A stretch of DNA of 64,000 bases. Source: Patescibacteria group bacterium. GTDB taxonomy: Bacteria > Patescibacteriota > Patescibacteriia > UBA1558 > GWA2-36-10. Within the stretch, counting starts at the first letter, position 1. Every line of letters begins with the position of its first letter. The translations under genes were made by a program, and so were the position numbers. The DNA is taken from assembly GCA_018819405.1 (NCBI GenBank), contig JAHJQF010000001.1, positions 162,097 through 226,096 of the forward strand, read 5' to 3'. The notes under the pieces are model-generated. The model saw only the letters and a program-made list of their open reading frames with translations. It was not told the DNA's origin and ran no database searches. Shown in pieces: positions 8,588 through 64,000 of the stretch.

Positions 8588-10051
8588 TTATTTTAACTTT
8601 TTATAAAGGCTTAGATATTTTTTGGCTGACATGTCCCAAGAAAAATCTTGTTTCATGCCATAAGTTATCATCTTTTTCATTTTAGCCTGATTCTGCCAAA
8701 TACGCAAAGAAATTTCTATAGCTTTGGCAGCTTCTGTTGGATTATATTTTTTAAAAACAATACCTGACTTATTATTTATCACAGTGTCTTTGAGACCGCC
8801 CGTAGCCCTGACAATAGGCACGGTACCATATCTCATAGCTATCATCTGCCCCAAACCGCAAGGCTCAAAACGAGACGGCATTAAGAAAAAATCTGAACCG
8901 GCATATATCTTTTGAGCCAAGGGGAGTGAAAAACTAATATTACTACTTACTTTTTCCGGATATTTTTTGGCCAGTTTTTTAAAAGCGTTTTCTATTTTGG
9001 GATGACCAGTGCCAAGCACTACTACTTGGAAGTCGTATTTTTTTAGATTTTTTTCCAAAGCTGGCACCAAAATATCAATGCCTTTTTGGCTAACCAAACG
9101 AGACACCAATCCCAAAACTGGTGTATCCTTAATTGGTAATTTTAGCTTCTTTTGCAAATCCTTTTTATTTATTTGCTTGGCTGAAACAAAATTTTGCAGA
9201 TTGTATTTCTTCTTCAAATTTTTGTCACGACTAGGATCAAACAATTTGGTATCAATCCCATTTAATATACCAAAAAGGTGTTTTTGACGCCGGCCGAGGT
9301 ATTCTTCAAGACCTTCACCATATTCTTTAGAAAGAATTTCTTTAGCATAGGTAGGACTGACAGTACTTATATAATCAGCCGATAAAATACCCACTTTCAT
9401 TGAGTCAATTTTTTGGCCATCTTTATCCAAATAATCCTCCATCAAAGCCGGAGTTAAGTGGGCATTTAAACCAGCGTAATCCAATATATCAAAACCGGTA
9501 ATACCCTGATGAGCTAGATTGTGAATAGTCAGGATACTTTTTATATTTTCAAAGTCTTTGTCACTCAAAGAATACTCATCTATAAAAGTCGGGGCCAAGG
9601 CCGTATGCCAATCATGAGCATGGATAATATCCGGTTTCCATTTCATGACTTTTATAGTTTCAATCACCGCCTTAGAAAAGAAAGCAAAGCGTTCTACGTC
9701 GCCCACTTTTTTCTTGGCACTTTGCTTGCTATCAATATAAACTTGTTTGGCATCAAAAATCCTATTTTTAATCAAATAAACAGGTACTTTGGAACCAGGT
9801 AAAAGACATTTATATAAATCGAACTTGTGCTCACGTTCGTTTATTTTGAGAGCAATATCCTTTTTATATAACTTAATATTATATTTTCTTTTATTTATCA
9901 AACCATAAAAAGGTAAAAATGTTTTTACATCCACTGAAAGCTTAACTAACGCCTGTGGCAATGAACCAACCACATCAGCCAATCCTCCTACTTTTACAAA
10001 TGGCGCCATTTCGGCGGCCATAAAAATAACTTGCATTTTATTTTTTGGCAT
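8588..10051 (-). CDS. glgA: Glycogen/starch synthase (GT5, GlgA)
   Basis: N-terminal 'MAPFVKVGGLADVVGSLPQAL' is the K-x-G-G-L signature; full GT-B length (487 aa). Confidence 0.85.
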   Translation of the reverse strand: MPKNKMQVIFMAAEMAPFVKVGGLADVVGSLPQALVKLSVDVKTFLPFYGLINKRKYNIKLYKKDIALKINEREHKFDLYKCLLPGSKVPVYLIKNRIFDAKQVYIDSKQSAKKKVGDVERFAFFSKAVIETIKVMKWKPDIIHAHDWHTALAPTFIDEYSLSDKDFENIKSILTIHNLAHQGITGFDILDYAGLNAHLTPALMEDYLDKDGQKIDSMKVGILSADYISTVSPTYAKEILSKEYGEGLEEYLGRRQKHLFGILNGIDTKLFDPSRDKNLKKKYNLQNFVSAKQINKKDLQKKLKLPIKDTPVLGLVSRLVSQKGIDILVPALEKNLKKYDFQVVVLGTGHPKIENAFKKLAKKYPEKVSSNISFSLPLAQKIYAGSDFFLMPSRFEPCGLGQMIAMRYGTVPIVRATGGLKDTVINNKSGIVFKKYNPTEAAKAIEISLRIWQNQAKMKKMITYGMKQDFSWDMSAKKYLSLYKKLK

Positions 10052-19459: not shown

Positions 19460-20230
19460 ATGAAAAAACTGCTGTTCTGCGCCATTTTGTTGGCGCTGGT
19501 GGCTGCCCTAGTCTCTGGCTGTACTACTCCCGGCAAAAAGTGGTACGGCTACGATCGCCAAAGCAAGGAATACATCCAGCTCGACAAGCAACCCTTTCAG
19601 CAGGCGGTTTACAACCTCTCCAGTTACACAATCTTCTTCACTCTGGAGGGCAAAGACGCCTGGTCTTGGACCGACCCCTACTACCAGATTGACCCTGGCT
19701 ACTCTGGATCTCTGGAAATACACCAGAGCTACACCAGCGACAAATTTCGCGCCTACTTCTGGTGCAAGGGTTGTCAGGATGTCCTGGGCACTACCGAAGA
19801 GATGATCGAGTTCGAGCTGCCCGGTCTGGCCACCATGCCGACCGATACACTGATTGTCACCGATGCCATGCTTATGGGCGATGCCCTCCAAGAGATGGCT
19901 GTCAAGAACATGACGGGTGTTGACTTGCACTACTACGACAATCGCGGCAACGACTTCGTGATAAAACATGGGCAAGCCTGGAGGCTACTGGTACTCTCCG
20001 GACCCTACAACTTCTGGGTTGAGCCTGTCATCAGACTCAAGTACGAAGCAGCCGCACCGGTAAAGCTGGGACAAGTAAGTTCCGACAAGCCGTTGATTAT
20101 TGACCGGCGACGCAATGCCTTGTGGACTGACCAGAACGGTCAACCCATTTATATCGGCGCCAAACGCATCATCGGTGCCGATGAAATTCCGCGCTTCTGG
20201 CGGGAAAGACGGCATTGGGCCGAGTACTAA
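19460..20230 (+). CDS. GC-rich (about 53% GC) lipoprotein of unknown function; compositionally foreign
   Basis: Signal peptide plus lipobox 'LVSGC'. Codon usage is biased to CTG/GGC/GCC, against roughly 32% GC in the flanks. The gene has its own promoter and terminator. Confidence 0.55.
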   Translation: MKKLLFCAILLALVAALVSGCTTPGKKWYGYDRQSKEYIQLDKQPFQQAVYNLSSYTIFFTLEGKDAWSWTDPYYQIDPGYSGSLEIHQSYTSDKFRAYFWCKGCQDVLGTTEEMIEFELPGLATMPTDTLIVTDAMLMGDALQEMAVKNMTGVDLHYYDNRGNDFVIKHGQAWRLLVLSGPYNFWVEPVIRLKYEAAAPVKLGQVSSDKPLIIDRRRNALWTDQNGQPIYIGAKRIIGADEIPRFWRERRHWAEY

Positions 20231-20295: not shown

Positions 20296-20691
20296 CTAAC
20301 CAGTAGCTTCACCACCACCGGTACCAGTACCAGCATTATCAGCTAGAGCTCTCAAAACAAAACTGGCAATTGCATAAGCCATGACAACTATTACTAGACC
20401 AATCACTGAGTTTTTTATAATGCTTTTAGCTTCATCAACTTGTTGGGAGTTTCCTTGGGAAGTCATCCACTTAAATCCTCCCCAAATAATCAAAACCGTA
20501 AAAAGCATGCCCAAAAGAGAAAGTAACGCGTTTATAATTCTGGCTATCATTTGTTGAGGGCTGACACCTTTTATAAGATTGCTGGCATTAGCCGCTTCTT
20601 CCAATCCGGTTTGAGCGGCATAATCAGAAGCTGATACTGCCAAAGGCAGTAATGCAACTAATAAGAAAATTGTATTTTTTATAGATTTCAT
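20296..20691 (-). CDS. TrbC/VirB2-like (T4SS-type) pilin paralog 1, with a Gly-rich C-terminal tail. An ATG start at 20691 is preferred over the track's TTG at 20697.
   Basis: Signal peptide and two TM helices flanking the conserved 'GGFKWMTSQGNSQQVDEAK' motif, plus an 'NAGTGTGGGEATG' tail. Confidence 0.5.
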   Translation of the reverse strand: MKSIKNTIFLLVALLPLAVSASDYAAQTGLEEAANASNLIKGVSPQQMIARIINALLSLLGMLFTVLIIWGGFKWMTSQGNSQQVDEAKSIIKNSVIGLVIVVMAYAIASFVLRALADNAGTGTGGGEATG

Positions 20692-20757
20692 ATGCAATAT
20701 AAGCTTTAGTAGGTCATCATGATAAATGACCCACTATAGTCTAGACTACATAGGTCG

Positions 20758-40070: not shown

Positions 40071-40493
40071 CTAGGAGCCACTGGTGAGCTCGACAATCTG
40101 CTGACTGTCAGCTCCGTAGCCGGTGATGACATATCCGATGTTGATGTTCCCTTGCTTGATGGGCTGGTAAAAGACCTGACCCGGACCGGGAACCTCGTCG
40201 GTCATGATCGCGTCACGCGGCTCGGTCACTTGGTTAGTGAAGGCGTTTTCCAGCAGTTGCTCAGCGGGCAGCAAATACAGGAAATAGACCACCTTCTCGG
40301 GGTAGCGACCGTCGTTTCTGACGACGTAGTCCTCGACGGCCAGCTGCACGGTGTGGCAGACGCCCTTGGTCTTGGCCTCCATGGCCCGGTTCTGCATGCT
40401 GATGAAGTTGGGGATGGCGATGGCCGCCAGGAGACCGAGGATGACCACAACGATCATCAGCTCGATGAGAGTAAAGCCCTTGCGATTGAACAT
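40071..40493 (-). CDS. Type IV pilin / pseudopilin (prepilin-peptidase-processed), GC-rich and compositionally foreign
   Basis: 'MFNRKG|FTLIELMIVVVILGLLAAIAIPNF' is a class III signal with Glu+5. GC is about 58%. It has an AGGAGG SD, and its promoter TTGACA-N17-TAAGAT is at 40601-40630. Confidence 0.75.
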   Translation of the reverse strand: MFNRKGFTLIELMIVVVILGLLAAIAIPNFISMQNRAMEAKTKGVCHTVQLAVEDYVVRNDGRYPEKVVYFLYLLPAEQLLENAFTNQVTEPRDAIMTDEVPGPGQVFYQPIKQGNINIGYVITGYGADSQQIVELTSGS

Positions 40494-44268: not shown

Positions 44269-44405
44269 AATAATCTTATTCTACCAGACTTAGCCCTCTT
44301 TTTCAATTGACAAAAAATATCTTATATATTAAATTATTTTTGCAACTTGCTTTACTACTATACTTCTGCCCAGTGAGTCTGTACCCTCACAGAAAGGAAG
44401 GATCC

Positions 44406-45185
44406 ATGATCCACTATGAACTACGCAACCCTCTACTTGGTCGCTGGTTTGTAACCACTCTTATCCTCGCCCTAGTCACCACCCTCATCCCAACACTGCA
44501 TTTCCAACCAACAAGTAGCTATTCGCTGATTCTGCCCCAGATAACCCCCGACTGGCTCATCTGGCCACTCAATCTGGCGCTCTTTGTCGCCACGCTGGTC
44601 TGGCTGATCACCAACCGCTTCAGCGTCTGGATTGCCGGCGCCTACAACCACTGGCTCTACCATCTGCTCTGGCTGGCTATGGCCAAGGTTGTTTGGCTGC
44701 TCTTTGGCCCGGTGCTGTCGCTTAATACCCTGATGATCACTAGTTTTGTGGTCGTATTCACTCTCATCACCTACCTAGCTATCAGGAAAATCGGCCAAGA
44801 CATCTACTGGCACTTGCCAACTGTCTTTGTCGTCTACCTGATGGCTCTGCGCCTGATGCATGATGTCAGTCTACTTGGCTGGGGCAAGCCGCTCACTCTG
44901 CTAAGCAAGCAGACCATCCTGCTTTGGACTTGCTTGAAGGTAGTCAGCCTCCCCATCCTCGGTCTCCTGGCCTTGGTCTACATTGCCAGCGGCCTTTACT
45001 TGTTCGGGCAAAAAATCAAAAACAGCTGGGACAACAATCTGGATGAAAGCGAGGAAATAATCGGCCTTTTCATGTTGCTGATTGGCATCATGATTTTCCT
45101 AATCATCTTTGAACTCCCTTACCAAATCAAAGAACACCTCATCAAGCCTACTTGGCATTGGCTCTTTCCCGACTACTCCTACTAG
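44406..45185 (+). CDS. GC-rich (about 52% GC) polytopic membrane protein, unknown function; compositionally foreign. The start is reassigned to 44406; the track ORF at 44307 begins inside the promoter.
   Basis: SD 'aaaggaagg' 6 nt before ATG 44406. Six to eight TM helices. The promoter TTGACA is at 44307-44312, and the terminator at 45198-45245. Confidence 0.5.
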   Translation: MIHYELRNPLLGRWFVTTLILALVTTLIPTLHFQPTSSYSLILPQITPDWLIWPLNLALFVATLVWLITNRFSVWIAGAYNHWLYHLLWLAMAKVVWLLFGPVLSLNTLMITSFVVVFTLITYLAIRKIGQDIYWHLPTVFVVYLMALRLMHDVSLLGWGKPLTLLSKQTILLWTCLKVVSLPILGLLALVYIASGLYLFGQKIKNSWDNNLDESEEIIGLFMLLIGIMIFLIIFELPYQIKEHLIKPTWHWLFPDYSY

Positions 45186-46690: not shown

Positions 46691-47791
46691 TTATTGCCTA
46701 ATAGGCATTACCAAATAAATATATTTGTCATTACCAACTGGCTGAAGTAGCCCTGGTGATGAATTATTGTTTATCTTCATATTTACTTCACTGGTACCCA
46801 GCTGATTAAGGCCATCTAGTAAATAGCGGTAGTTAAAGACAATATCATTTTCTTCTCCTTTTATTTCTGCTGAGACATTGGCAATTGAAGTACCAGTATT
46901 TGATGAAGCAGTAGCGATAATTATTTTTTGAGACTTGGCATCAAAACTAAGTCTTATATCATTAATACCTTGTTTGCAAAACAGAGCCACTGATTTTATA
47001 GCTGGGACAAGCTTACTAATATTGCACTTGGCTTCAGTTTTGAATTCAGCTGGAATAATTTGACTATAATCTGGGTATTTACCATCTATTACACGCGATA
47101 TGAGCTCTACTCCATCAAGCTCAAACATTATCTGATTTTCATTAAAAAATATTTTGAGTTTTTTGTCCTGCTGGTCATTTAGAATCCTAGCTAATTCTTG
47201 TAAAGTTTTGAGAGGAATTATTAGGTTTTTGTTTTCCCCGTTTTCTACTGGGATTTTCTTTTCAGCCAAACGGTAGCTATCAGTAGCTGCTAGAGTAAGT
47301 TCATTTTTTTGAAAGTTGAAGTTTACAGCATTTATTTCAATCCTTGAGACATCTAGTGACGCGGCTAGTAGCACTTGAGAAAGACTTTTTTTCAAGTCAG
47401 CGATTGAGATTTCTACCATGTTATGTTTTTCTATTTCTGGTATCAGAGGAAAGTCTTCAGCAAGCATGCCTTTGATAGAGGTTTCTTGGTTGGCACTTTT
47501 TATTTCTAGGTTATCTCCGTCCAAGTTGATTTCAATATTTTCTCTGGGAAGAAAAGAAACAAAGTTGTGAATCAATTTAGCATCTACTGTAAACTCGCCT
47601 GACTTTTCTATTTTTCCTCTAATTGATGCTTTGATACCAATTTCCAAATCAGTAGTGATCAAAGTGAGATCGTTTTTTTCTGCTTTCAATAATACATTAT
47701 TCAAAATTGGCAAGTTGGAACTTTTGTTGGCAATGTTTGATACCAAAGATAATCCTTTATTCAAATTTTCCTGAGTGCAAACAATTTTCAT
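46691..47791 (-). CDS. dnaN: DNA polymerase III beta sliding clamp
   Basis: Three-domain clamp of 366 aa, immediately downstream of dnaA. Confidence 0.93.
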   Translation of the reverse strand: MKIVCTQENLNKGLSLVSNIANKSSNLPILNNVLLKAEKNDLTLITTDLEIGIKASIRGKIEKSGEFTVDAKLIHNFVSFLPRENIEINLDGDNLEIKSANQETSIKGMLAEDFPLIPEIEKHNMVEISIADLKKSLSQVLLAASLDVSRIEINAVNFNFQKNELTLAATDSYRLAEKKIPVENGENKNLIIPLKTLQELARILNDQQDKKLKIFFNENQIMFELDGVELISRVIDGKYPDYSQIIPAEFKTEAKCNISKLVPAIKSVALFCKQGINDIRLSFDAKSQKIIIATASSNTGTSIANVSAEIKGEENDIVFNYRYLLDGLNQLGTSEVNMKINNNSSPGLLQPVGNDKYIYLVMPIRQ

Positions 47792-48088
47792 ATTATTATT
47801 GTTTAATTATTTATATATAAAATTTAGTAGTAGTTATAGGCACGGTGGATATGTTTATAAGTGGAGAAAAATTTTGGTAAAGCCTAGGAAAATTTGTTTT
47901 TATTTTGGATTTTAGCTGGTGGACAATCAGTTCACAAAAATGTTGATAAGAGGTTTTTTTGTGAATAAGTTTTGAGACTTTATTTTGATCGGTGGATAAG
48001 CTGGTGTTTATACACAGTTAGTTATAAAACTTTACACAAGGTTATAAAAAACTTATAAACAATTTATTCACGCAATTTTTGTGAATCT
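47792..48088. promoter_or_regulatory. oriC-type region: a cluster of DnaA-box-like 9-mers between dnaA and dnaN, plus an A/T-rich unwinding tract
   Basis: 'ggtggataa' at 47991-47999, 'tgtgaataa' at 47961-47969, 'tgttgataa' at 47941-47949, 'ggtggacaa' at 47918-47926, 'ttattcacg' at 48065-48073 and 'tgtgaatct' at 48081-48089. Two perfect tandem 'tgtggataa' boxes lie upstream of dnaA at 49573-49591. Confidence 0.6.
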
Positions 48089-49471
48089 TTAATTGCGTTC
48101 ATAGATTTTTGTCTTTAAAACTAAGATGTCATTTTTAATTCTATCATCAGATTCAATTAAGGTGGTTACTTTGACACAGGCGTGCATGGCAGTGGTGTGA
48201 TCTCGTCCGCCTATTTCTTGCCCGATGTTTGGGTAAGAGGCTTTAAGCTCTTCTCTCATCAAAAACATAGCAATTTGTCGGGGCACTACCAATTCTTTTT
48301 TGCGGCTGGCGCCCAAGAGATTTTCCATGCTAATGTCGTAAAATTCTGAAATGACTGTCAAAAGTCTTTTGGGGGTCAGTCCCGCCTTTCTAGGATTGGC
48401 AGCAATACCTCCCAAAATGGATTTTACGCTCTCTAAACTAGGAGTGGTGTTGTTGAGTTGATGAAAAGCAATAATTCTATTTAGAGCGCCTTCTAACTCG
48501 CGGATATTTTCTTGAATAGTTTCAGCAATATATTGAACTATCTTTGGGTCAAGATTATATTTTTTTTCTTGGGCCTTAATTTCTAAAATAGCCACTCTAG
48601 TTTCTAGATCAGGAGAAGAAATATCGGCAATCATCCCCCACTCAAAACGGGAAATCAACCTGTTCTCTACTTCTTGGATAGCTTTTGGTGGTCTATCAGA
48701 AGATATAACTATTTGTTTATTGTTTTGGTGAAGGGCATTGAAAGTATGGAAAAATTCCTCTTGAGTTTGTTCTTTTCCGGCTATAAACTGGATATCATCA
48801 ATCAAAAGCACGTCAATATTTCTATACATTTGCTTAAATTTGTCAGTTTGTCCCGATTTTATAGCAAAAATAAAGTCATTGGTAAATTTTTCGCTATTAA
48901 TATAAAGGACCCTTTTACTAGGATCTTTGGCTAATATATAATTACCAACAGCTTGGACTAGGTGAGTTTTTCCCAAACCTACACCACCATATATAAATAA
49001 AGGATTGTAGATTTCACCAGGTTTTTGAGCAGCCGCATGAGCAGCCGCTTGGGCCAACTCATTGCCTGGTCCAACAACAAAGGTTTCAAACTTATAGTGA
49101 GGATTTAGGCCAAATTTACTGACACTTTGGCCATTAGAAGGATTGCTGGAGTTATGCACATAGGAGGTTTTTTCTTTATTAATATTTTCAACATTTTCGC
49201 TAATGTCAGCCATCTTTTCCTTTGTTATGACCCTGTAGATAACCTGTAGATTATTTTTTGATAACACATTTTCCAGAGCTGATATAATTTTGTCGTGGTA
49301 CTTCTTTTCCAACCATACTTTGGTAAAGGCATTGGGCACTCCAACCACCACTTGGTCTGATTCAACACTGGCAATAAAGGTATTTTTAAACCAAGTAGTA
49401 AAGTTTGCTTTACTGATTAAAAGTTCTAATTCACCCAGGGTATTTTCCCAGATTTTATCGTAATTTTCCAT
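48089..49471 (-). CDS. dnaA: Chromosomal replication initiator DnaA
   Basis: AAA+ 'GGVGLGKTHL' and the C-terminal DnaA-box-binding domain; 460 aa. Confidence 0.95.
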   Translation of the reverse strand: MENYDKIWENTLGELELLISKANFTTWFKNTFIASVESDQVVVGVPNAFTKVWLEKKYHDKIISALENVLSKNNLQVIYRVITKEKMADISENVENINKEKTSYVHNSSNPSNGQSVSKFGLNPHYKFETFVVGPGNELAQAAAHAAAQKPGEIYNPLFIYGGVGLGKTHLVQAVGNYILAKDPSKRVLYINSEKFTNDFIFAIKSGQTDKFKQMYRNIDVLLIDDIQFIAGKEQTQEEFFHTFNALHQNNKQIVISSDRPPKAIQEVENRLISRFEWGMIADISSPDLETRVAILEIKAQEKKYNLDPKIVQYIAETIQENIRELEGALNRIIAFHQLNNTTPSLESVKSILGGIAANPRKAGLTPKRLLTVISEFYDISMENLLGASRKKELVVPRQIAMFLMREELKASYPNIGQEIGGRDHTTAMHACVKVTTLIESDDRIKNDILVLKTKIYERN

Positions 49472-49572
49472 ATTTTTAGCTTTGTTTTAGCCCGAAAACT
49501 TAGTCTATATTACTATAGCACAAATAAAACTTTACCAAAATACAGACTTTAGTTGAAAAAATGTGAACAGCT

Positions 49573-53274: not shown

Positions 53275-53349
53275 GACCCCATAGTTTAATGGATAAAACA
53301 AGAACCTCCTAAGTTCTAGATCCAGGTTCGATTCCTGGTGGGGTCACCA
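53275..53349 (+). tRNA. tRNA-Arg (anticodon CCU) with an encoded CCA
   Basis: Folded by hand: acceptor 'gacccca'/'tggggtc', D-arm 'gttt-aatggata-aaac', anticodon arm 'agaac-cuCCUaa-gttct', T-arm 'ccagg-ttcgatt-cctgg', discriminator A and CCA; 75 nt. Confidence 0.85.
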
Positions 53350-54444: not shown

Positions 54445-54576
54445 AAATAGCCGTTTCCAAGAGAAATAAAGTTAATACACAAATATTAGCCAAATTAAAT
54501 AGGCCGCTACGGAGCTATTTGGCCTCTCAGACAATAAACAAACACTTGTGAGCTACACTGGGGCGTAGCTATTTTC

Positions 54577-54605
54577 TTGACAATCCTCATAAAAAGATAT
54601 ATAAG
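54577..54605 (+). promoter_or_regulatory. Promoter TTGACA-N17-TATAAG. It is the first copy of a 25-nt direct repeat 'ctggggc.(3-4 nt).ttattttcttgaca', at 54558-54582 (phased from the TTGACA position).
   Basis: TTGACA at 54577-54582 and TATAAG at 54600-54605. The repeat copy at 55077-55100 carries the promoter of the CsoR-like gene. Confidence 0.45.
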
Positions 54606-54611
54606 AAAAGG

Positions 54612-54895
54612 ATTCTTTGAAATATCTTGGCCAATATGGCCCTAGCGTCTAGTTTGGATAAAAAGGATATCTGATTTGGCTGCTGTGGCTATAAAAGTCA
54701 AAGCCGTGAAAGCTAAAGCGTAATTTGACCTTATAGTCAGAATTTAGTTCTTTATGGTAATTTTTGAGTGAGAGAGCTAGGGTAAGGGGTTCGCGCCCAG
54801 CATCCTTTACGGAGGGTGTCCGAGGACATACTCGGAGGAACTTCTTCCCTGCTGGCCCCACTGACTTCGGTTGGTGGGGCTATTTTATTTGACCC
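54612..54895 (+). ncRNA. Candidate promoter-to-terminator transcript of about 285 nt with a GC-rich structured 3' half; class unknown
   Basis: No credible ORF. The 3' half carries a three-way junction (stem 54797-54802/54850-54855 enclosing hairpins 54819-54836 and 54837-54848). It ends at terminator 'gcccca-ctgacttcggttgg-tggggc' (54855-54880) followed by 'tattttattt'. Confidence 0.3.
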
Positions 54896-55169
54896 CATAA
54901 TCGACAGACCTCAATATCAAGTATTGGGTGAGGATAGTTTAGTTTTGAAGGGATAGTATCATATCAGGGCTGAAATAGAACAGTGGTCTGTCGCTACGGG
55001 GCGGGACGTGGTGTTTAGTTAACCTTAGACAATAAATAAGCTCCAGTGTTTGCCTGCCCGCCATAGCCGGCACGGCAGGCGGGGAACTGGGGCAGACTTA
55101 TTTTCTTGACACATTTTGGACAATATGATAGTATACCCCCATAGGGTATATAAGTATTTAGCTAAATCA

Positions 55170-58109: not shown

Positions 58110-58130
58110 ATTTTTATATAAAAAGAAGAA

Positions 58131-58163
58131 GCACCCCAAGACATGGCAAGGGGTGCTTTTTTG
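58131..58163. terminator. Bidirectional intrinsic terminator 'gcacccc-(12 nt)-ggggtgc' + T6
   Basis: Seen in sequence, between gdh (+) and the GC-rich Cys-rich gene (-). Confidence 0.6.
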
Positions 58164-58184
58164 TTGCGGCGCTTGTGGTGGCGC

Positions 58185-58457
58185 CTAGTTGTTGTCCGGT
58201 TCGGGCTCGGGATCCTGGCGGGGGCGGGGATCACGGGGATCCTGCTGCGGTGGGGCAGCCTCATAGAGAGGCTCTTTCTTCGACTGGAAACATCCGCAAC
58301 TTTCGTTGCAACTTTCCTTGCCACACTGGCACCTGCTCATGGGGAGCCTCCTCGGGATTGGGTGATGAAGTCCATTAGATCCCATGATTGGAATGCCGGC
58401 GAGATCATCTCTGCCTTCGGTTTCGTACCAATCGCCGGTTCCAAAACAACCGCCCAT
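58185..58457 (-). CDS. GC-rich (about 63% GC) small Cys-rich, Pro/acidic-tailed protein (90 aa), unknown function; compositionally foreign
   Basis: AGGAGG SD 6 nt before the ATG, and a perfect TTGACA-N17-TATAAT promoter on the minus strand (58499-58527). 'CQCGKESCNESCGC' is a putative metal-binding cluster, and the tail is '...DPRDPRPRQDPEPEPDNN'. The overlapping plus-strand ORF 58143-58472 is judged spurious. Confidence 0.4.
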   Translation of the reverse strand: MGGCFGTGDWYETEGRDDLAGIPIMGSNGLHHPIPRRLPMSRCQCGKESCNESCGCFQSKKEPLYEAAPPQQDPRDPRPRQDPEPEPDNN

Positions 58458-58498
58458 AGGGCACCTCCTTAAAGATAATAGTGGTAGTCAGTTATAAG

Positions 58499-58527
58499 AT
58501 TATAACCAGCCTTATATTTTTTGTCAA
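58499..58527 (-). promoter_or_regulatory. Consensus sigma70 promoter TTGACA-N17-TATAAT (minus strand) for the Cys-rich gene
   Basis: Seen in sequence: 'ttgacaaaaaatataaggctggtTATAAT'. Confidence 0.55.
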
Positions 58528-58566
58528 AAGTAAAACACCGAGCTTCCGTGGAGAGGTTCGGTGTTT

Positions 58567-59190
58567 TTATGATGGTAGGTCTTGCCGACAAGTGACAGCA
58601 AATGGATTGCTGGTCAGCACCTTATCTAGATCAAAACCTTGCAATAAGTGGAATCCGTTTTCACTGGTCTCCGGCAGATCGTCTAGACAGTGAAATATAA
58701 GGTAGCTTTTGAGGCAGACAACTTTGGGACAGTTGGCAAAGGCTTGGCCAAGGTCAAATTCGTAGAGAAAGTCTAGCTCGCTTGGGGGTTGGTATATTTC
58801 TAGCAAATAATCTCTGGCCATTATTTGAGCAGTCATTTCCGATTTTGTTTCGGGATCACTTATGGACTCTACAAACATTTCCAATACCTCATCCATACTG
58901 GGTTCTATAGCAATGAGGTCGTCTAGACCGTTTAGATTACGGTCATAAGTGTCTTCCGGAAAAATCGGTAGACCGCATTCTTCCAGGTCAAACCAGTCTG
59001 GCGGGCAGCTAGTATCTTGGGTAGTTTTTTCTTCATCAGAAAAAACAAGTGTTTCCTCCTGGTCTAGTTCTCTGAGGTGATCGTAACCGTCAGTCAGGGG
59101 CAAGATTATAAGGTAATTTTTGTCCAGTTGAGCCATCATTCCCTCCTTGGTGTCAATGTTCGCGACTTCCATCTTAATTATACCCAGCAT
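58567..59190 (-). CDS. hypothetical highly acidic protein (207 aa, intermediate GC of about 43%)
   Basis: An ORF rich in Asp/Glu with no known motif. The start is ambiguous (59190, or an internal Met at 59139/59136 next to a 'ggaggg' SD). Confidence 0.35.
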   Translation of the reverse strand: MLGIIKMEVANIDTKEGMMAQLDKNYLIILPLTDGYDHLRELDQEETLVFSDEEKTTQDTSCPPDWFDLEECGLPIFPEDTYDRNLNGLDDLIAIEPSMDEVLEMFVESISDPETKSEMTAQIMARDYLLEIYQPPSELDFLYEFDLGQAFANCPKVVCLKSYLIFHCLDDLPETSENGFHLLQGFDLDKVLTSNPFAVTCRQDLPS

Positions 59191-59224
59191 TTCTTTTTTC
59201 TGTCAAAAATTATATAATTTTATT

Positions 59225-59836
59225 ATGTCAAAATATATCATCGGAATAGACGAGGCTGGTCGCGGGCCACTGGCTGGACCAATAGTAGCGGCTGGTATAA
59301 TCTTTCGTGGCTCAAAAAGGGAAAAGCAAATTTTGGATTTAGTAGATGATAGTAAAAAACTTAGCCTCAAGAGGCGAGAGGATTTATTTTTACCAATTAT
59401 CAAAAATTTTATTTGGTCAGTCAGGATGTATGATAATAATTTTATAGATAAATATGGCATTCAAAGAGCCAATATACTTTTATTTCACGATATTGTAGAA
59501 GATTTAGGAAAATATTTTGGTAAAACAAATGATGTGGTGGCTGATTATGTGGGGGGAGGGGAAACAGTTTTGAAAAATATAAATTTTTTTAAGTCTGGTG
59601 AAAGTCAATTCAAAGAAATTGCTGCTGCTTCGATATTGGCTAAGGTATATCGTGATAGATTGATGATGGATATAGATAAAAATTATCCGCATTATGAATT
59701 TGGGCTGCACAAAGGCTATGGTACTCGAAGACATTTTGAAGCAATCTCTAGACATGGCTTGTCACCAATTCATAGAAAAAGCTTTCTAAAAAATTCAGCC
59801 CTTGCGTATTTTGATACTACAAGGGCTAAGATTTAG
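59225..59836 (+). CDS. rnhB: Ribonuclease HII. The start is reassigned to 59225; the track ORF begins at 59147.
   Basis: 'MSKYIIGIDEAGRGPLAGPIVAAG' is the canonical RNase HII N-terminus with the DEDD catalytic residues. Confidence 0.85.
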   Translation: MSKYIIGIDEAGRGPLAGPIVAAGIIFRGSKREKQILDLVDDSKKLSLKRREDLFLPIIKNFIWSVRMYDNNFIDKYGIQRANILLFHDIVEDLGKYFGKTNDVVADYVGGGETVLKNINFFKSGESQFKEIAAASILAKVYRDRLMMDIDKNYPHYEFGLHKGYGTRRHFEAISRHGLSPIHRKSFLKNSALAYFDTTRAKI

Positions 59837-60177
59837 TTGGAGCCTGCTCCGTTGAGAGAGCGAGGTTCTACTACGCGACCTTCTTTGATTGCTCGGATGA
59901 TACCTTGGATCATACCGTCGGAAATACCTCGATCAATATAGACTACAGTGGCTTGAGCTTGGTGTCCCCAAGCCAAGCCGGCTTCAATACCAAGTCTTCT
60001 TTGTTCGGGTACAGTATCGTCTAAGATGCCTTCTTGGGTATAGAGTAGGTGCGAGGCATAAGGAGCTTCACCGCGTTTGAGACAATCAAGGACACAAGCT
60101 CTAGCGTAGCGAATGTTGGCTTGTACTTCCTCGGGAGTGCCGGCAAAGGGGCTTTCTATTATTACTAGACGGTGCAT
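59833..60177 (-). CDS. GC-rich (about 52% GC) hypothetical protein, possibly a DUF4406-like fold (nucleoside 2-deoxyribosyltransferase-like, common in phages)
   Basis: 'LVIIESPFAG...EAPYASH...YIDRGISDGMIQGIIRAIKEG' loosely matches the DUF4406 pattern. AGGAG SD. The gene is convergent with rnhB and overlaps it by 4 nt. Confidence 0.35.
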   Translation of the reverse strand: MHRLVIIESPFAGTPEEVQANIRYARACVLDCLKRGEAPYASHLLYTQEGILDDTVPEQRRLGIEAGLAWGHQAQATVVYIDRGISDGMIQGIIRAIKEGRVVEPRSLNGAGSN

Positions 60178-60262
60178 GTTTTTCTCCTGTCTGAAAGTTT
60201 GTTGTACGAAGTGGGCAGGACACTAATATTTATTAACATAGAAAAAATATTTGAGCAAGTTC

Positions 60263-60368
60263 TTGACAGACAAAATAAATTTGTTGTAAGATAGAAGAAC
60301 AAATAAAGCCGTCTATTTTTTGAGAGACGGCTATACATACAAAAGCCCCCACATTGTGGGGGCTTTTG
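60263..60368 (+). promoter_or_regulatory. Compact promoter-hairpin-terminator unit: TTGACA-N18-TAAGAT (60263-60292), a roughly 70-nt transcript with hairpin 'gccgtct-attttttgag-agacggc' (60308-60331), and intrinsic terminator 'gccccca-cattg-tgggggc' + T4 (60345-60368)
   Basis: Seen in sequence. It contains no ORF and lies between the DUF4406-like gene and ssb. It is a candidate sRNA or an insulating terminator. Confidence 0.35.
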
Positions 60369-60490
60369 CGAAGAAAAGCGATTTTGAGAGCTAACTAGGT
60401 TAGTCTCAACAGAATCATACGACAAATTGAGAGATTTGTCAATATTTATTAGTAATTCCACAATATGTGGATAGGAAAGGAAAAGTGATT

Positions 60491-60898
60491 ATGGACTTAA
60501 ACAAAGTAAGTCTAATCGGCAATTTAGTAGCCGATCCAGAGGCCAGGACATTGCCCTCCGGGCAAAATCTAGCAGTATTTAAGATTGCGACCAATTATGT
60601 TTGGCGTGATCAGCAAAGCAAAGAAAAAAAGACCAGGGCTGATTTTCACCGGGCTGTGGCTTGGGGGCACTTGGCAGATATTATCAATACCTACCTAAAA
60701 AAAGGCTCCAAGGTTTTTTTGGAAGGGCGTTTGCAAAATCGTTCTTGGGAAGATAAAAATAAAAACAAAAGATATACCACAGAGATTGTGGCTAGTGATT
60801 TGATAATGCTAGGTGGCAGCAACAAAAAAACTGTTACTGGTGACGAAACAGCTAGAGAGGATGTTGATGTACAGACTATAGAGCTAGACGATAATTAA
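60491..60898 (+). CDS. ssb: Single-stranded DNA-binding protein. The start is reassigned to 60491; the track ORF begins at 60467.
   Basis: OB-fold 'VSLIGNLVADPEARTLPSGQNLAVFKIATN...FHRAVAWGHLAD' and an acidic C-terminus. SD 'aggaaagga'. Confidence 0.85.
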   Translation: MDLNKVSLIGNLVADPEARTLPSGQNLAVFKIATNYVWRDQQSKEKKTRADFHRAVAWGHLADIINTYLKKGSKVFLEGRLQNRSWEDKNKNKRYTTEIVASDLIMLGGSNKKTVTGDETAREDVDVQTIELDDN

Positions 60899-61142
60899 TT
60901 GTCTTTTCAAGGTCTGAAGTTTGCCTGTATCTTCAGGCCTTCAATAAGACAATTAGAAGAAAGCGATTTTTCTGTCTCAGGGAGCATCTTTTTGGTGGGA
61001 GAGCTAAATTGTCCTAGGTTAGTTTTTTGTGTTCGTGCAAAAAGCTAACCACGATGTTCATTGACAAAACCAAAGGAGGAAAACAGCACTAGTCCATTCT
61101 AGTTTTTGGTCACCGGTTCCCACAAAACAAAAGGAGAGGGTC

Positions 61143-61826
61143 ATGAAAGGTAAAGTGTGTTGGCTCAGCTTGTTGATTATGGCCATGGTCACTTTTTGGC
61201 TTATTGGCTGTGATCGCGAGGAAGCGGGAGTGGTGTCTCCCGTTGAGGTGGAGCAAGTCGTTGCCAGCCCAAGTGAGCAGGCGGAGAAAGCTTATCCACC
61301 CTATTCATTCTCGCTCAGGGTTCCGTTTCTCACGCAGGTTCCGCCTGGAGATTGGCTCAACACCAAAAACTGTGGGCAGACTTGTGCTGTCATGTTGGGT
61401 GGCTATTTTAATAATAGCCCAGTCAACTCAAGTCAAATTACAGCTCAGAATGTCTGGTTGGCAAACTATACTGGCAATTCTTGCTATAATCGGGCCAATG
61501 GTTGCGATACCTCAATTTATCGATTGAAAACGCTACTGGAACAGAAACATAAATTGCGCACTTCATATCCCGCTTGCAGTACGCTAGAGCAACTGATCAA
61601 TATAGTTGCTAGCGGTAAACCTTGTGTAGTCGGGGTGATGATCAAGAGCGGCAACTTGGTTTCAAGCGGTGGGTATCCTCATTGGGCCATTGTAGTTGGC
61701 TGGAATGGCAACGTGATCATCAATGATCCGGGCTCTTCCCGTGGCAATCATCGCAGCTATTCCATAGCCGCTTTTGATGCCTCTTGGGCAACTCAAGGCA
61801 GAACATATTTTTCTGTCTCGCGTTAG
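61143..61826 (+). CDS. GC-rich (about 50% GC) lipoprotein with a C39-like (papain-fold) peptidase domain; compositionally foreign
   Basis: Signal peptide plus lipobox 'LIGC'. Candidate catalytic Cys 'TKNCGQTCAVML' and His 'YPHWAIVVGWNGNVIINDPG' (Peptidase_C39_2 / YvpB-like layout). SD 'aaaaggagagggtc'. Confidence 0.5.
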   Translation: MKGKVCWLSLLIMAMVTFWLIGCDREEAGVVSPVEVEQVVASPSEQAEKAYPPYSFSLRVPFLTQVPPGDWLNTKNCGQTCAVMLGGYFNNSPVNSSQITAQNVWLANYTGNSCYNRANGCDTSIYRLKTLLEQKHKLRTSYPACSTLEQLINIVASGKPCVVGVMIKSGNLVSSGGYPHWAIVVGWNGNVIINDPGSSRGNHRSYSIAAFDASWATQGRTYFSVSR

Positions 61827-61832
61827 CCTAGT

Positions 61833-61870
61833 GGGGCGAGTCAAATTTTTAACTCGCCCCCCATATCTTT
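61833..61870 (+). terminator. Hairpin 'ggggcgagt-(10 nt)-actcgcccc' downstream of the C39-like gene
   Basis: A 9-bp G/C stem with a weak T tract after it. Confidence 0.4.
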
Positions 61871-61906: not shown

Positions 61907-62404
61907 ATGAGTAGAAAAAAAGCACTAAAAATTTTAATAATTTTTTTGATAATAATTATTTTAGTTATTATTTATTTTTTGTTAGTCAAGAAAAAGAAAA
62001 ACAATACAATAGAGATGGTAGAAAATTTTACTTTGTATCAAGAAATAATTGATCCAAATGAAAAATCATTTGACAAATCTTGTCCCAATGAAGAATTTAA
62101 TAAATTTCTTTTACTGACGGAGCAGGGTAGTATAAAGAGTTTGAAGTTGCCGGGCGGACTACTGACAATAATAACACCAAATTATTATAATTGGAGTAAC
62201 AAAAAATTTTTGAGTTTTAATACTATTGAGCCAGAGGCATTTTGTAATGCTGGCGGGACTTATCCACTTCACGCTTATAAAGATAAGCTATTGTGGAAGC
62301 AAGGTTGTAGCACTGGCGCGATGCCCGAGCCAGACGCCCCAAATTATCAGGAGTTTATGAAGTGTATAGAAACAGAAGAAACAATTATAAATTTTTTTAA
62401 ATAG
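61907..62404 (+). CDS. hypothetical membrane-anchored extracytoplasmic protein (165 aa, 4 Cys)
   Basis: N-terminal TM anchor 'ILIIFLIIIILVIIYFLLV'. AT-rich and native. Confidence 0.35.
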   Translation: MSRKKALKILIIFLIIIILVIIYFLLVKKKKNNTIEMVENFTLYQEIIDPNEKSFDKSCPNEEFNKFLLLTEQGSIKSLKLPGGLLTIITPNYYNWSNKKFLSFNTIEPEAFCNAGGTYPLHAYKDKLLWKQGCSTGAMPEPDAPNYQEFMKCIETEETIINFFK

Positions 62405-62492: not shown

Positions 62493-64000
62493 ATGCAAAG
62501 AAAAGTGATTTTCCCGTTTATCGGGGCCGTCCTTTGGACGATTCTAATTTGTTTTTTCACGCTGACTTTAAAAGTTGAAGCCAGTGAAAGCGATTTGCTA
62601 TTTTCAGAGATAATGTATGACGCCTCTGGTGCTGATAGTGGTCATGAGTGGATTGAAATTTTTAATTCTGGACAGGAAGATGTGGTAGCTAGCAGTACCT
62701 GGAGATTTTTTGATGGGGCTAATCATAATATTAATCTATATCAAGGCACCACTACTATTGCTTCTCAAGAATATTTTGTTTTGGCCGACAACGCTGAGAA
62801 TTTTTTAGTTGATTATCCAGATTTTAATGGTACTGTTTTTGATACAGTGATGAGTTTGCCAAATAGTAGTTCTACTATTGGGCTGAGTTTTGACAATGGT
62901 CAGTCGTATTTAATAGAAAGTTTTTATGATGCTAGTTGGGGAGGGGGCGATGGCTTTTCTCTGGAGAAAATTTTAGAGACATGGCAACAATCCTGTTTGT
63001 TAGGAGGTAGTCCTGGTGTTGCCAACCAAGAATGTGAAACAGATGAGCCTAGTCAGGATAGTGAACCAGAAATAAATTATTGGTCGCAGATTGTAATTTC
63101 AGAATTTTTACCTAATCCAGAAGGTAGCGACGACAATGAATGGATTGAATTGTATAATCTAGGCCCAGAAATAATTGACCTATCTGGCTTTGTACTAGGC
63201 GATGATTCTAGCCGGCGCTTTACATTAGATCAAGACGCGGGTATTGATTTAGGGCTGTTACCAAATAGCTATTTAGTGGTTTATAAAAATATAAGTGGCA
63301 TATCTTTGAATAATTCTGGTACAGACTCGGTCAGGCTATATACGCCAGAAGAAATACTACAAGAAAGAGTAGAGTATAATGGTCCGGCTTTGGAAAATAG
63401 AAGCTATGCCAGAAGTGATAGTGGTTTTGTCTGGACCAAAAATCCTACTCCTGGCCAAGCCAATCAAATAGTAGAAAATCAGGCTCCAATTGCCCAGATT
63501 TTGGCAGAAGGAACTTTTAATATTAGCCAAAAGATTAGTTTTTCGGGGGAAAACTCTAGTGACCCAGAAGGGGAAGATTTGGACTATTTCTGGGATTTTG
63601 GGGATGGTCAGACCAGCTCCAAGGCCAGCTTGACTCACAAATTTGAACAAGCTGGACATTATACAATAGTATTGACCGTAACTGATCCTGAGGGACTTGG
63701 TGATAGGGCAGAATTTGTCATAGATATTTATCCTATAAATGAGACAAGTCAGGATATTACGGAAGTAGAGAAGGTACAAAGTGAAGAAAAAATTTTTGAA
63801 ACAAATTTGGTTGAGGATGATTTGATAATTTCAGAAATAATGCCCAATCCCAAAGGCAGTGATGATAATGAATGGATTGAGCTGTACAATGCTACGGATA
63901 ATGATATAAATTTGTTTGACTGGAGCATAGACGATGCAGAGGGAGGGTCCAAGCCATATCAATTTGCTACCACAACCATAAAGGCTAATAGCTTTTTAAT
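62493..64000 (+). CDS. Secreted surface protein with repeated lamin-tail domains (LTD) and a PKD domain. It is partial and runs off the window end.
   Basis: Translated by hand with no stop to the window end. Signal peptide. Three LTD cores ('SEIMYDASGADSGHEWIEIFNSG', 'ISEFLPNPEGSDDNEWIELYNLG', 'ISEIMPNPKGSDDNEWIELYNAT') and a PKD core 'DYFWDFGDGQTS...GHYTIVLTVTDPEG'. The minus-strand track ORFs 63357-63952 are spurious. Confidence 0.7.
   Translation, partial: MQRKVIFPFIGAVLWTILICFFTLTLKVEASESDLLFSEIMYDASGADSGHEWIEIFNSGQEDVVASSTWRFFDGANHNINLYQGTTTIASQEYFVLADNAENFLVDYPDFNGTVFDTVMSLPNSSSTIGLSFDNGQSYLIESFYDASWGGGDGFSLEKILETWQQSCLLGGSPGVANQECETDEPSQDSEPEINYWSQIVISEFLPNPEGSDDNEWIELYNLGPEIIDLSGFVLGDDSSRRFTLDQDAGIDLGLLPNSYLVVYKNISGISLNNSGTDSVRLYTPEEILQERVEYNGPALENRSYARSDSGFVWTKNPTPGQANQIVENQAPIAQILAEGTFNISQKISFSGENSSDPEGEDLDYFWDFGDGQTSSKASLTHKFEQAGHYTIVLTVTDPEGLGDRAEFVIDIYPINETSQDITEVEKVQSEEKIFETNLVEDDLIISEIMPNPKGSDDNEWIELYNATDNDINLFDWSIDDAEGGSKPYQFATTTIKANSFL

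Follow-up and report, generated by a model that had tools for sequence, protein, structure and literature searches.

The DNA analysed here, referred to as the window, is a stretch of 64,000 nucleotides from a Patescibacteria contig of ~1.04 Mb, and the segment in question occupies 58.1–61.9 kb of it. In this segment the backbone genes rnhB and ssb are interspersed with four genes of raised GC content, encoding a small cysteine-rich (Cys-rich) protein, an acidic protein, a DUF7768 protein and a lipoprotein with a C39-like peptidase domain. An earlier note, made from the DNA sequence alone, had described the segment as a mosaic of native genes and genes of foreign composition. Comparison with related genomes makes it probable that the segment is instead part of a conserved, origin-proximal backbone containing three slots in which unrelated accessory genes come and go, and that it is not one acquired mosaic. 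All six open reading frames (ORFs) that the note had named are present at, or close to, the positions it had assigned to them (Table 1). Independent assemblies, namely a 1,035,872-bp ENA contig and a 14.6-kb Logan contig, contain the same gene arrangement with 100% identity, and therefore the segment is not an assembly chimera.

The loci of relatives were located by way of protein homologues and by scanning GTDB genomes for rnhB, which gave four relatives (L004, L007, L010 and L011) and one short fragment (L009, 662 bp). With the window labelled W, L004 A, L007 B, L010 C and L011 D, the tree obtained from backbone protein identities is (((W,A),C),(B,D)). The backbone order CsoR–Trx–TrxR–GDH–rnhB–ssb–LTD/PKD–DUF218 is common to the window and the four relatives; backbone proteins are 50–80% identical in the genomes that share slots, the range between the window and L007 being 42–72%. 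The variable genes are confined to three gaps in this backbone. The first slot, between GDH and rnhB, holds the Cys-rich and acidic genes in the window, only an acidic gene (67% identical) in L004, only an uncalled Cys-rich homologue in L010, an unrelated acidic ORF in L011 and nothing (33 bp) in L007; fragment L009 has a 49-aa Cys-rich homologue beside rnhB. The second slot, between rnhB and the ssb leader, holds the DUF7768 gene in the window and is empty in all four relatives. The third, between ssb and LTD/PKD, holds the C39 gene and a gene for a 165-aa membrane protein in the window; the C39 gene, a 162-aa homologue of the membrane protein and a 203-aa gene in L007; and a different high-GC lipoprotein, a 338-aa gene, a 171-aa homologue of the membrane protein and a 232-aa gene in L011. 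In L004 and L010 this slot is empty, and LTD/PKD follows directly after the ssb terminator.

The same genes at the same positions with similarly raised GC, which the note had said would make the segment ancestral, are thus found in relatives for three of the four genes: the Cys-rich gene (L009 and L010), the acidic gene (L004) and the C39 gene (L007). The idea of a foreign mosaic is largely refuted by these homologues. The DUF7768 gene has no such counterpart, and when the rnhB–ssb neighbourhood was compared among relatives, as the note had proposed, it was the only gene that looked recently inserted.

Hotspots for accessory genes between conserved core genes are a general concept. The segment shares with chromosomal hotspots its conserved flanks, a content that differs among close relatives and the lack of a dedicated recombinase; unlike them, its slots hold only one or two genes, and most of the occupants are old and clade-restricted. 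The hallmarks of an integrative mobile element or genomic island, namely a recombinase, attachment repeats and a tRNA target, were not found in the segment. No integrase or transposase is present in its neighbourhood, as the note had stated, nor is any other recombinase, and the sole tRNA is at 53275. A repeat search of the window gave no attachment-like (att-like) repeats around the Cys-rich, acidic or DUF7768 genes; direct repeats, which the note had suggested looking for at the GC transitions, do flank the block formed by the C39 gene and its neighbour. A PADLOC search for defence systems returned no match. A diversity-generating retroelement was also considered and rejected, there being no template-like repeat of any segment gene elsewhere in the window.

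Table 1. Positions, strands and base composition of the features of the segment (GC3, GC content at third codon positions; RBS, ribosome-binding site)
Feature	Position	Strand	GC	GC3	Details
GC-rich hairpin	58130..58163	.			AGCACCCC…GGGGTGCT then TTTTTT; T-runs on both sides; read from the sequence
Small Cys-rich protein	58185..58457	−	0.575	0.60	90-aa ORF; conserved core: the last 51 aa, from Met40 (58185–58340)
Promoter, Cys-rich gene	58499..58527	−			perfect sigma-70, TTGACA-17-TATAAT; RBS AAGGAGG at ~58470
Terminator-like hairpin	58532..58567	.			inverted repeat I25; follows the acidic gene and precedes the Cys-rich promoter
Acidic protein	58567..59139	−	0.438	0.45	190 aa, pI 4.05, 41 Asp+Glu, cytoplasmic; five cysteines conserved in the homologue
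Promoter, acidic gene	59177..59206	−			perfect sigma-70, TTGACA-18-TATAAT; RBS AAGGAGG at 59148
rnhB (RNase HII)	59225..59836	+	0.348	0.27	backbone gene; PF01351 at 3.7e-30
DUF7768 protein	59833..60177	−	0.493	0.39	phage-type relative of nucleoside 2-deoxyribosyltransferases; PF24963, E=2.5e-28
Conserved non-coding element upstream of ssb	60263..60466	+			aligned across five lineages
ssb	60491..60898	+	0.407	0.39	backbone gene, same position in all relatives; PF00436 at 2.8e-34
ssb terminator hairpin	60910–60940				conserved
GAA(A)AG[CT]GATTT copy	60957..60975	+			just past the ssb terminator; second copy at the LTD/PKD start, 62494–62512
Peptidase_C39_2 papain-like lipoprotein	61143..61826	+	0.481	0.49	227 aa; candidate catalytic Cys77, His180, Asp195, Gln65
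Membrane-anchored partner	61907..62404	+			165 aa, four invariant cysteines; directly 3' of the C39 gene

Raised GC in the slot genes

The baseline for GC3 was taken from 56 ORFs of the window (median 0.31, robust standard deviation 0.044), with |z|>2 as the cut-off for outliers. GC3 is raised in the Cys-rich (z = +6.5), C39 (+4.0) and acidic (+3.1) genes, whereas the DUF7768 gene and ssb, at about +1.8 each, fall under the cut-off and are only mildly raised. The alternation of GC along the segment that the note had reported is therefore present, but not with the extremes it gave: rnhB and ssb are both above the 30% or so ascribed to them, and the maximum in any 200-nt window of the segment is 0.59 and not 0.63. 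Nor is the pattern peculiar to this segment, because three genes elsewhere in the window deviate more, encoding a lipoprotein (19460–20230, +, GC3 0.68), a type IV pilin with an N_methyl motif (40071–40493, −, 0.81) and a polytopic membrane protein (44307–45185, +, 0.65). Envelope proteins are encoded by four of the seven GC3 outliers in the window, C39 included. The outlying lipoprotein gene is adjoined by a gene for a type IV secretion system pilin (20296-20697, −; PF18895, 4.4e-13).

The raised GC3 of three of the slot genes could be taken to mean that the whole of 58.1–61.9 kb, or all four high-GC genes, was recently acquired as foreign DNA amid native genes. Single-gene horizontal transfer has been reported to be common in Patescibacteria (PMC12455944), and in one further lineage (L090) the C39 module lies in an element with recombinases and a Rep gene. 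We nevertheless regard such an acquisition as improbable. Apart from the missing att-like repeats, integrase and transposase, homologues of three of the four genes occupy the same slot, with similarly raised GC, in genomes whose backbone is only 50–80% identical: the Cys-rich homologues in L009 and L010 have a GC of 0.56–0.59, the acidic one in L004 has 0.43, and the C39 gene of L007 is likewise raised. Furthermore, in five of six lineages the GC3 of the C39 gene (0.49–0.69) stands above that of the partner gene next to it (0.25–0.43), and the two genes diverge in parallel. Between the window and L007 the C39 proteins are 71% and the partners 65–69% identical; the corresponding values are 53% and 36% for L092 and 46% and 29% for L090, so that the order of divergence is the same for both. 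A GC3 step retained while the C39 gene and its low-GC partner diverge together cannot be the signature of a donor.

The raised GC of most of the slot genes is therefore a gene-specific property kept across lineages and not a sign of recent foreign origin. Selection on the gene and biased gene conversion are both candidate causes. The DUF7768 and acidic genes are enriched in C-ending but not G-ending codons, whereas the Cys-rich gene and the pilin and lipoprotein outliers are enriched in both; these preferences gave no discrimination between causes of raised GC3. In these small AT-rich genomes a foreign-looking GC content is no proof of recent transfer, since the slot homologues keep it at 50–60% protein identity, and composition-based island predictors would over-call transfer in this segment.

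The first and second slots

In the alignment, the conserved part of the Cys-rich protein begins at Met40; either this start, which gives a 51-aa form, or that of the 90-aa form may be the one used. In three lineages the core has the motif M-x-C-x(1-2)-C-G-[KR]-x-S-C-[NQ]-E-x-C, followed by a variable tail rich in Pro, Asp and Glu. Met40 (58340) has its own ribosome-binding site, GAGGAGG, and the first 39 residues are specific to the window lineage. The possibility that this extension is a decayed tandem copy of the 5' end of the gene was not supported, the local alignment score being reached by 518 of 2000 shuffled sequences.

An indexed search of 5.8 billion sequence clusters matched the Cys-rich protein only to itself, whereas a full HMMER scan found one homologue, the 49-aa protein P0046 of L009 (E=2.7e-5). 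A third member, at 9726–9911 of L010, had been missed by gene callers. Scanning the 25,523 ORFs of the fetched loci with a hidden Markov model and a regular expression placed the family in the same three lineages only, a metagenome DNA scan with the alignment of the three proteins gave no further homologue, and there was no match in Pfam, NCBIfam, PHROG, PADLOC or PDB. All three copies adjoin rnhB, have a GC of 0.56–0.59 in AT-rich surroundings and are preceded by a TTGACA-17-TATAAT or TATACT promoter, an untranslated region of ~35 nt and an AAGGAGG-N6-ATG start.

Since the 58.1–58.5 kb region stands out by its high GC from an AT-rich genome and possesses both a perfect promoter and a terminator, and since the GC content of the Cys-rich gene is nearly flat over the three codon positions (0.60/0.52/0.60), it could be supposed that the product is a structured non-coding RNA and not a protein. 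This is most unlikely. The region has no Rfam match, even at E≤1, and its fold-energy z-score is only −1.76, whereas a strong Shine–Dalgarno sequence stands at the proper spacing ahead of the ATG in all three lineages. The conserved residues of the homologues often use different synonymous codons, which favours a protein-coding ORF; the tail varies in sequence and retains its Pro/Asp/Glu character. The antisense ORF of the gene is not conserved.

It is proposed that the core forms a four-cysteine knuckle, that the acidic, proline-containing tail is disordered and that the protein is cytoplasmic; it may bind metal (Zn or Cu) or act as a thiol-redox protein. These ~50-aa four-cysteine proteins with acidic tails, which gene callers miss, would be a previously unannotated family.

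The note had credited the Cys-rich gene with the strongest promoter and Shine–Dalgarno sequence in the window. Their strength is borne out, but they are not unique to this gene and the acidic gene is its equal: within the 64 kb, perfect TTGACA-N17/18-TATAAT sites occur just twice, as do sites with AAGGAGG plus a start codon, and in both cases they lie upstream of the Cys-rich and acidic genes. The GC-rich hairpin at 58130..58163 also appears in the RNA fold and looks like a bidirectional terminator common to GDH (+) and the Cys-rich gene (−).

For the acidic gene, the start is most likely at 59139 (MMAQ…), because its promoter overlaps the first ATG of the ORF and because the homologue begins MMAK. 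That homologue, P0045, is the only one found (67% identity, GC 0.43, same slot in L004). The protein had no family match in Pfam, NCBIfam, PHROGs or PADLOC, nor any significant similarity to the acidic ORF that L011 carries in this slot. Both the Cys-rich and the acidic gene recur in this gap in relatives with the same raised GC, and they are therefore not recent imports; they would be old residents of the gap in this clade.

The situation in the second slot is different. The note had called the gene between rnhB and ssb DUF4406-like and a typical phage or mobile-element passenger; the second description holds, while the family label has to be changed. The protein matches PF24963 (DUF7768) with 98.7 bits against a cut-off of 26, over residues 4–103 and the full length of the profile, and DUF4406 is not among the Pfam matches listed up to E=1. 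In PHROG it matches phrog_24212 (8e-39) and phrog_355, annotated as nucleoside 2-deoxyribosyltransferase (3.8e-20); a relationship to DUF4406 is visible only through the annotation of the latter. Its identity to proteins of 345 phage records, which include Rhizobium phages, T4-like Yersinia phages and jumbo phages, is 60–67%, and 17 IMG/VR viral contigs also match it. In the viral contigs the GC of the gene tracks that of the contig (0.35–0.67), whereas here it is 0.49 in a genome of 0.36. With the phage DUF7768 and nucleoside 2-deoxyribosyltransferase-like proteins it shares the full-length match and the motifs ESP[FY]AG…ASHLLYTQEGILDD; unlike them, it sits by itself on a bacterial chromosome, without further phage genes in its vicinity.

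The gene is missing from L004, L007, L010 and L011. The inserted DNA spans roughly 59800–60253, and homology to the relatives resumes at a conserved promoter near 60254. The last ~11 codons of rnhB are unlike those of any relative (…FLKNSALAYFDTTRAKI here, against …FLxKYL-stop or …FLKNYNIS-stop), because this C-terminus (…NSALAYFDTTRAKI) is encoded by the adjacent inserted DNA. The convergent rnhB and DUF7768 genes overlap by 4 nt (59833-59836). The DUF7768 gene is thus the one gene for which recent transfer, in this lineage only, is well supported by the sequence comparison. A phage-type gene would have landed on the 3' end of rnhB, having arrived by transformation or with phage DNA; illegitimate recombination is the suggested step since no recombinase is present.

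The C39 lipoprotein and its membrane partner

The assignment of the third-slot lipoprotein to a C39-like peptidase, made in the note with a candidate Cys/His dyad, was upheld on both counts. The protein matches PF13529 with 30.5 bits against a cut-off of 24, over profile positions 1–142 of 143, and PF12385 is also matched. Its AlphaFold2 (AF2) model has a mean confidence score (pLDDT) of 88.7, and above 97 in the domain; the top Foldseek match, and the best in the PDB, is 3erv, a putative C39-like peptidase of Bacillus anthracis (E=1e-6), followed by a papain-like CdiA-CT toxin, a primitive phytochelatin synthase, staphopain and cathepsins. No useful match came from searching PDB sequences with the Cys-rich profile or with C39, DUF7768 and the partner. 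Across 42 homologue clusters, most of which carry PF13529 and of which all the named ones are members of the CPR, the candidate phyla radiation, N76-C77-G78-Q79 is invariant, and Q65, H180 and D195-P196-G197 are at least 90% conserved. The lipoprotein signals are an LIGC lipobox and an N-terminal Cys in the alignment consensus. On this evidence the protein is a lipoprotein of papain-like fold with a conserved Cys/His/Asp triad, and peptidase activity is predicted. Its same-slot homologue in L007 is 71% identical, and the best identity among the 5.8 billion sequence clusters is 74%.

With the C39_2 or YvpB-like peptidases such as 3erv it shares a match above the Pfam cut-off, the triad with its Gln, a secreted or anchored location and the absence of a transporter fusion; unlike them, it is a lipoprotein of a subfamily restricted to Patescibacteria and always accompanied by a four-Cys membrane partner. 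It shares the papain-like clan and Cys/His catalysis with the ComA/LagD-type C39 domains (PF03412), from which it differs in being extracytoplasmic and lipid-anchored, with no fused or adjacent ATP-binding cassette (ABC) transporter; PF03412 is not among its Pfam matches. C39_2 domains have been listed among the catalytic domains of phage endolysins, which makes a cell-wall substrate plausible for the lipoprotein, although unproven.

The note had also suggested that the peptidase and the Cys-rich peptide could be functionally linked. In its full form this would have the peptidase processing the peptide as a secreted precursor of the bacteriocin type or of the ribosomally synthesised and post-translationally modified type, and an association of C39 with bacteriocin processing has also been made for a CPR genome (PMC7143001). 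The two genes lie within 3.7 kb, the peptide is rich in Cys and has strong expression signals, and its 90-aa form carries a 39-residue extension ahead of the Cys motif, ending near 'IMGS'. The link was not borne out, and there is very little chance that it is real. L007 has the C39 gene without the peptide and L010 the peptide without the C39 gene, the 662-bp L009 being uninformative as to C39. Short homologues of the peptide begin directly at the Cys motif (MCRYCG…, MACQFCG…) with no double-glycine leader, and therefore there is no leader for C39 to cleave. The peptide is without signal sequence or export signal, whereas the peptidase is an extracytoplasmic lipoprotein (PF13529, PF12385) with no C39 domain of the ABC-transporter type listed, and no ABC transporter is encoded within 10 kb on either side of its gene. 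The constant neighbour of the peptidase is, instead, the 165-aa membrane protein downstream, which lies outside the interval treated in the note.

In all six contexts in which the C39 gene was seen (the window, L007, L090, L092, L110 and L114), the next gene encodes a homologue of this partner, a protein with an N-terminal membrane helix; in L090 the pair is located between serine recombinases and a Rep gene. The third slot would thus hold a two-gene extracytoplasmic module of a lipid-anchored papain-like peptidase and a single-pass membrane protein with two probable disulfides. The C39 protein and its partner may constitute an enzyme and partner pair at the envelope, that is, a protease with an inhibitor, an immunity protein or a regulator, possibly acting on peptidoglycan. 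The closest parallels are staphopain with staphostatin and CdiA-CT with CdiI, where a papain-fold gene is likewise followed by a small partner and the enzyme never occurs without the partner, the partner sometimes alone; the structural matches of C39 include both staphopain and a CdiA-CT domain. The likeness is one of gene arrangement only, the window partner differing in being membrane-anchored and extracytoplasmic and in having no detectable similarity to staphostatins or known immunity proteins. Taken further, it is conceivable, though we hold it only tentatively, that this is a clade-specific Patescibacteria module in which a lipid-anchored C39_2 peptidase and an obligate, membrane-anchored four-Cys partner function as an effector–immunity or protease–inhibitor pair on the surface with which these episymbionts touch their hosts, with the high GC3 of the peptidase gene, beside a partner of low GC3, held by gene-specific selection and with the ~50-aa four-Cys family alongside, expressed from consensus promoters. 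A system like LapG/LapD/LapA, with peptidase, membrane regulator and LTD/PKD protein, was rejected: the other C39–partner loci lack the LTD/PKD gene, so that co-occurrence gives it no support.

Several further observations were made on the loci of this module. The high-GC lipoprotein (GC3 0.67) that follows ssb in L011 (2605-3228), ahead of the partner homologue, shares with the window C39 protein only the signal peptide, the lipobox (GCDR[KE]E) and the linker (E=4e-5); the mature domains are unrelated, that of L011 having Cys and His residues of its own (NCKDW…HTFIV). On sequence grounds this suggests that the effector domain has been swapped behind a common leader. In two lineages (L112 1322-2491; L114 3989-4981) the partner domain is fused to a domain with a weak PsbP_2-like match, which is encoded by a separate downstream gene in L007 (5969-6580) and L011 (4780-5478) and is not present in the window; the fusions indicate that the two domains are functionally linked. 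Genes for four-helix bundles of the 23S_rRNA_IVP family (PF05635) are found upstream of the partner in L110 (2249-2605), L113 (930-1292) and L114 (2486-2878). In L110 and L114 this gene is ahead of C39, and in L113, which has no C39 gene, it is directly ahead of the partner, after a different high-GC ORF; the window has no PF05635 gene.

History of the third slot and the ssb leader

The motif GAA(A)AG[CT]GATT occurs five times in 2.3 kb: in the ssb leader (60371), in the ssb ribosome-binding region (60479), past the ssb terminator (60957), in the region of the LTD/PKD start codon (62498) and 90 nt into LTD/PKD (62586). In its 15-nt form, with up to 2 mismatches, it is found 4 times in the window against 0.77 expected. 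The copies at 60957 and 62494–62512 flank the C39–partner block as direct repeats, and in L004 and L010 the motif-bearing start of LTD/PKD abuts the ssb terminator. Deletion between the direct repeats, having occurred twice, would explain the distribution of the block; the module is probably ancestral and would have been deleted in these two relatives.

Alternatively, the block may have been lost in the common ancestor of the window, L004 and L010 and regained by the window lineage from related Patescibacteria, through homologous recombination in ssb and LTD/PKD. On the tree above this needs as many events as two independent losses do; the 71% identity of the C39 proteins of the window and L007 is at the upper end of their backbone range, the module is mobile elsewhere (L090), and genetic manipulation of Patescibacteria through natural transformation is described in PMC10633639. 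We think this rather unlikely, since no donor closer than 74% exists among the 5.8 billion sequence clusters, the relic of the motif past the ssb terminator is common to the window, L007 and L011, and the flanking direct repeats offer a simple route for deletion.

Several points weigh against the reading of the segment as a backbone with slots of mostly old content, or limit it. An ancestral block lost twice and a block lost once and regained each cost two events. The reading has no explanation for the lasting high GC3. The tail of the window Cys-rich protein resembles that of L009, a distant lineage, more than that of the nearer L010, which hints at some lateral exchange within the clade. With regard to function, all assignments past fold and family are inferred. 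The Cys-rich protein had no match to a metal-binding family, such as a metallothionein or zinc knuckle, in Pfam, NCBIfam or PDB; the AF2 model of the acidic protein, with a pLDDT of 32.7, is unusable; and the partner had no Pfam match above cut-off and no PDB match. The partner is also found without the C39 gene, in L011, L112, L113 and L115, which fits an immunity or regulator role but is not proof of it. Finally, a hairpin and a weak promoter-like site lie between the C39 and partner genes, and therefore the two may not be co-transcribed.

The conserved non-coding element upstream of ssb is a candidate leader or attenuator of ssb, or a small RNA, to judge by its sequence. It contains a promoter-like TTGACA-18-TAAGAT, two hairpins of which the second (60340–60368) is terminator-like, an invariant AAGAAAAGCGATTTTGAGA and a third hairpin. 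The element aligns across five lineages, with some compensatory changes, while rnhB is only ~51% identical; it has no Rfam match. Together with the C39_2 peptidase–partner module and the tiny Cys-rich family, it is a modest lead for Patescibacteria biology, none of the three being a major surprise; for the rest, the segment shows an ordinary pattern of accessory genes in a conserved backbone.

The distance from the segment to dnaA, at which the GC skew reverses, is ~10 kb. A probable replication origin is located at ~47000-49500, with the skew flip beside dnaA (48089–49471, −) and with rnpA, yidD and yidC near. Between it and the segment, the CNNM–CsoR intergenic region (54445-55115, 670 nt) has a GC of 0.435, peaking at 0.49, with no ORF longer than 70 aa and no Rfam match. 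Relatives have other GC-rich content in the same place, including a 139-aa ORF in L004, and this region looks like a fourth variable slot.

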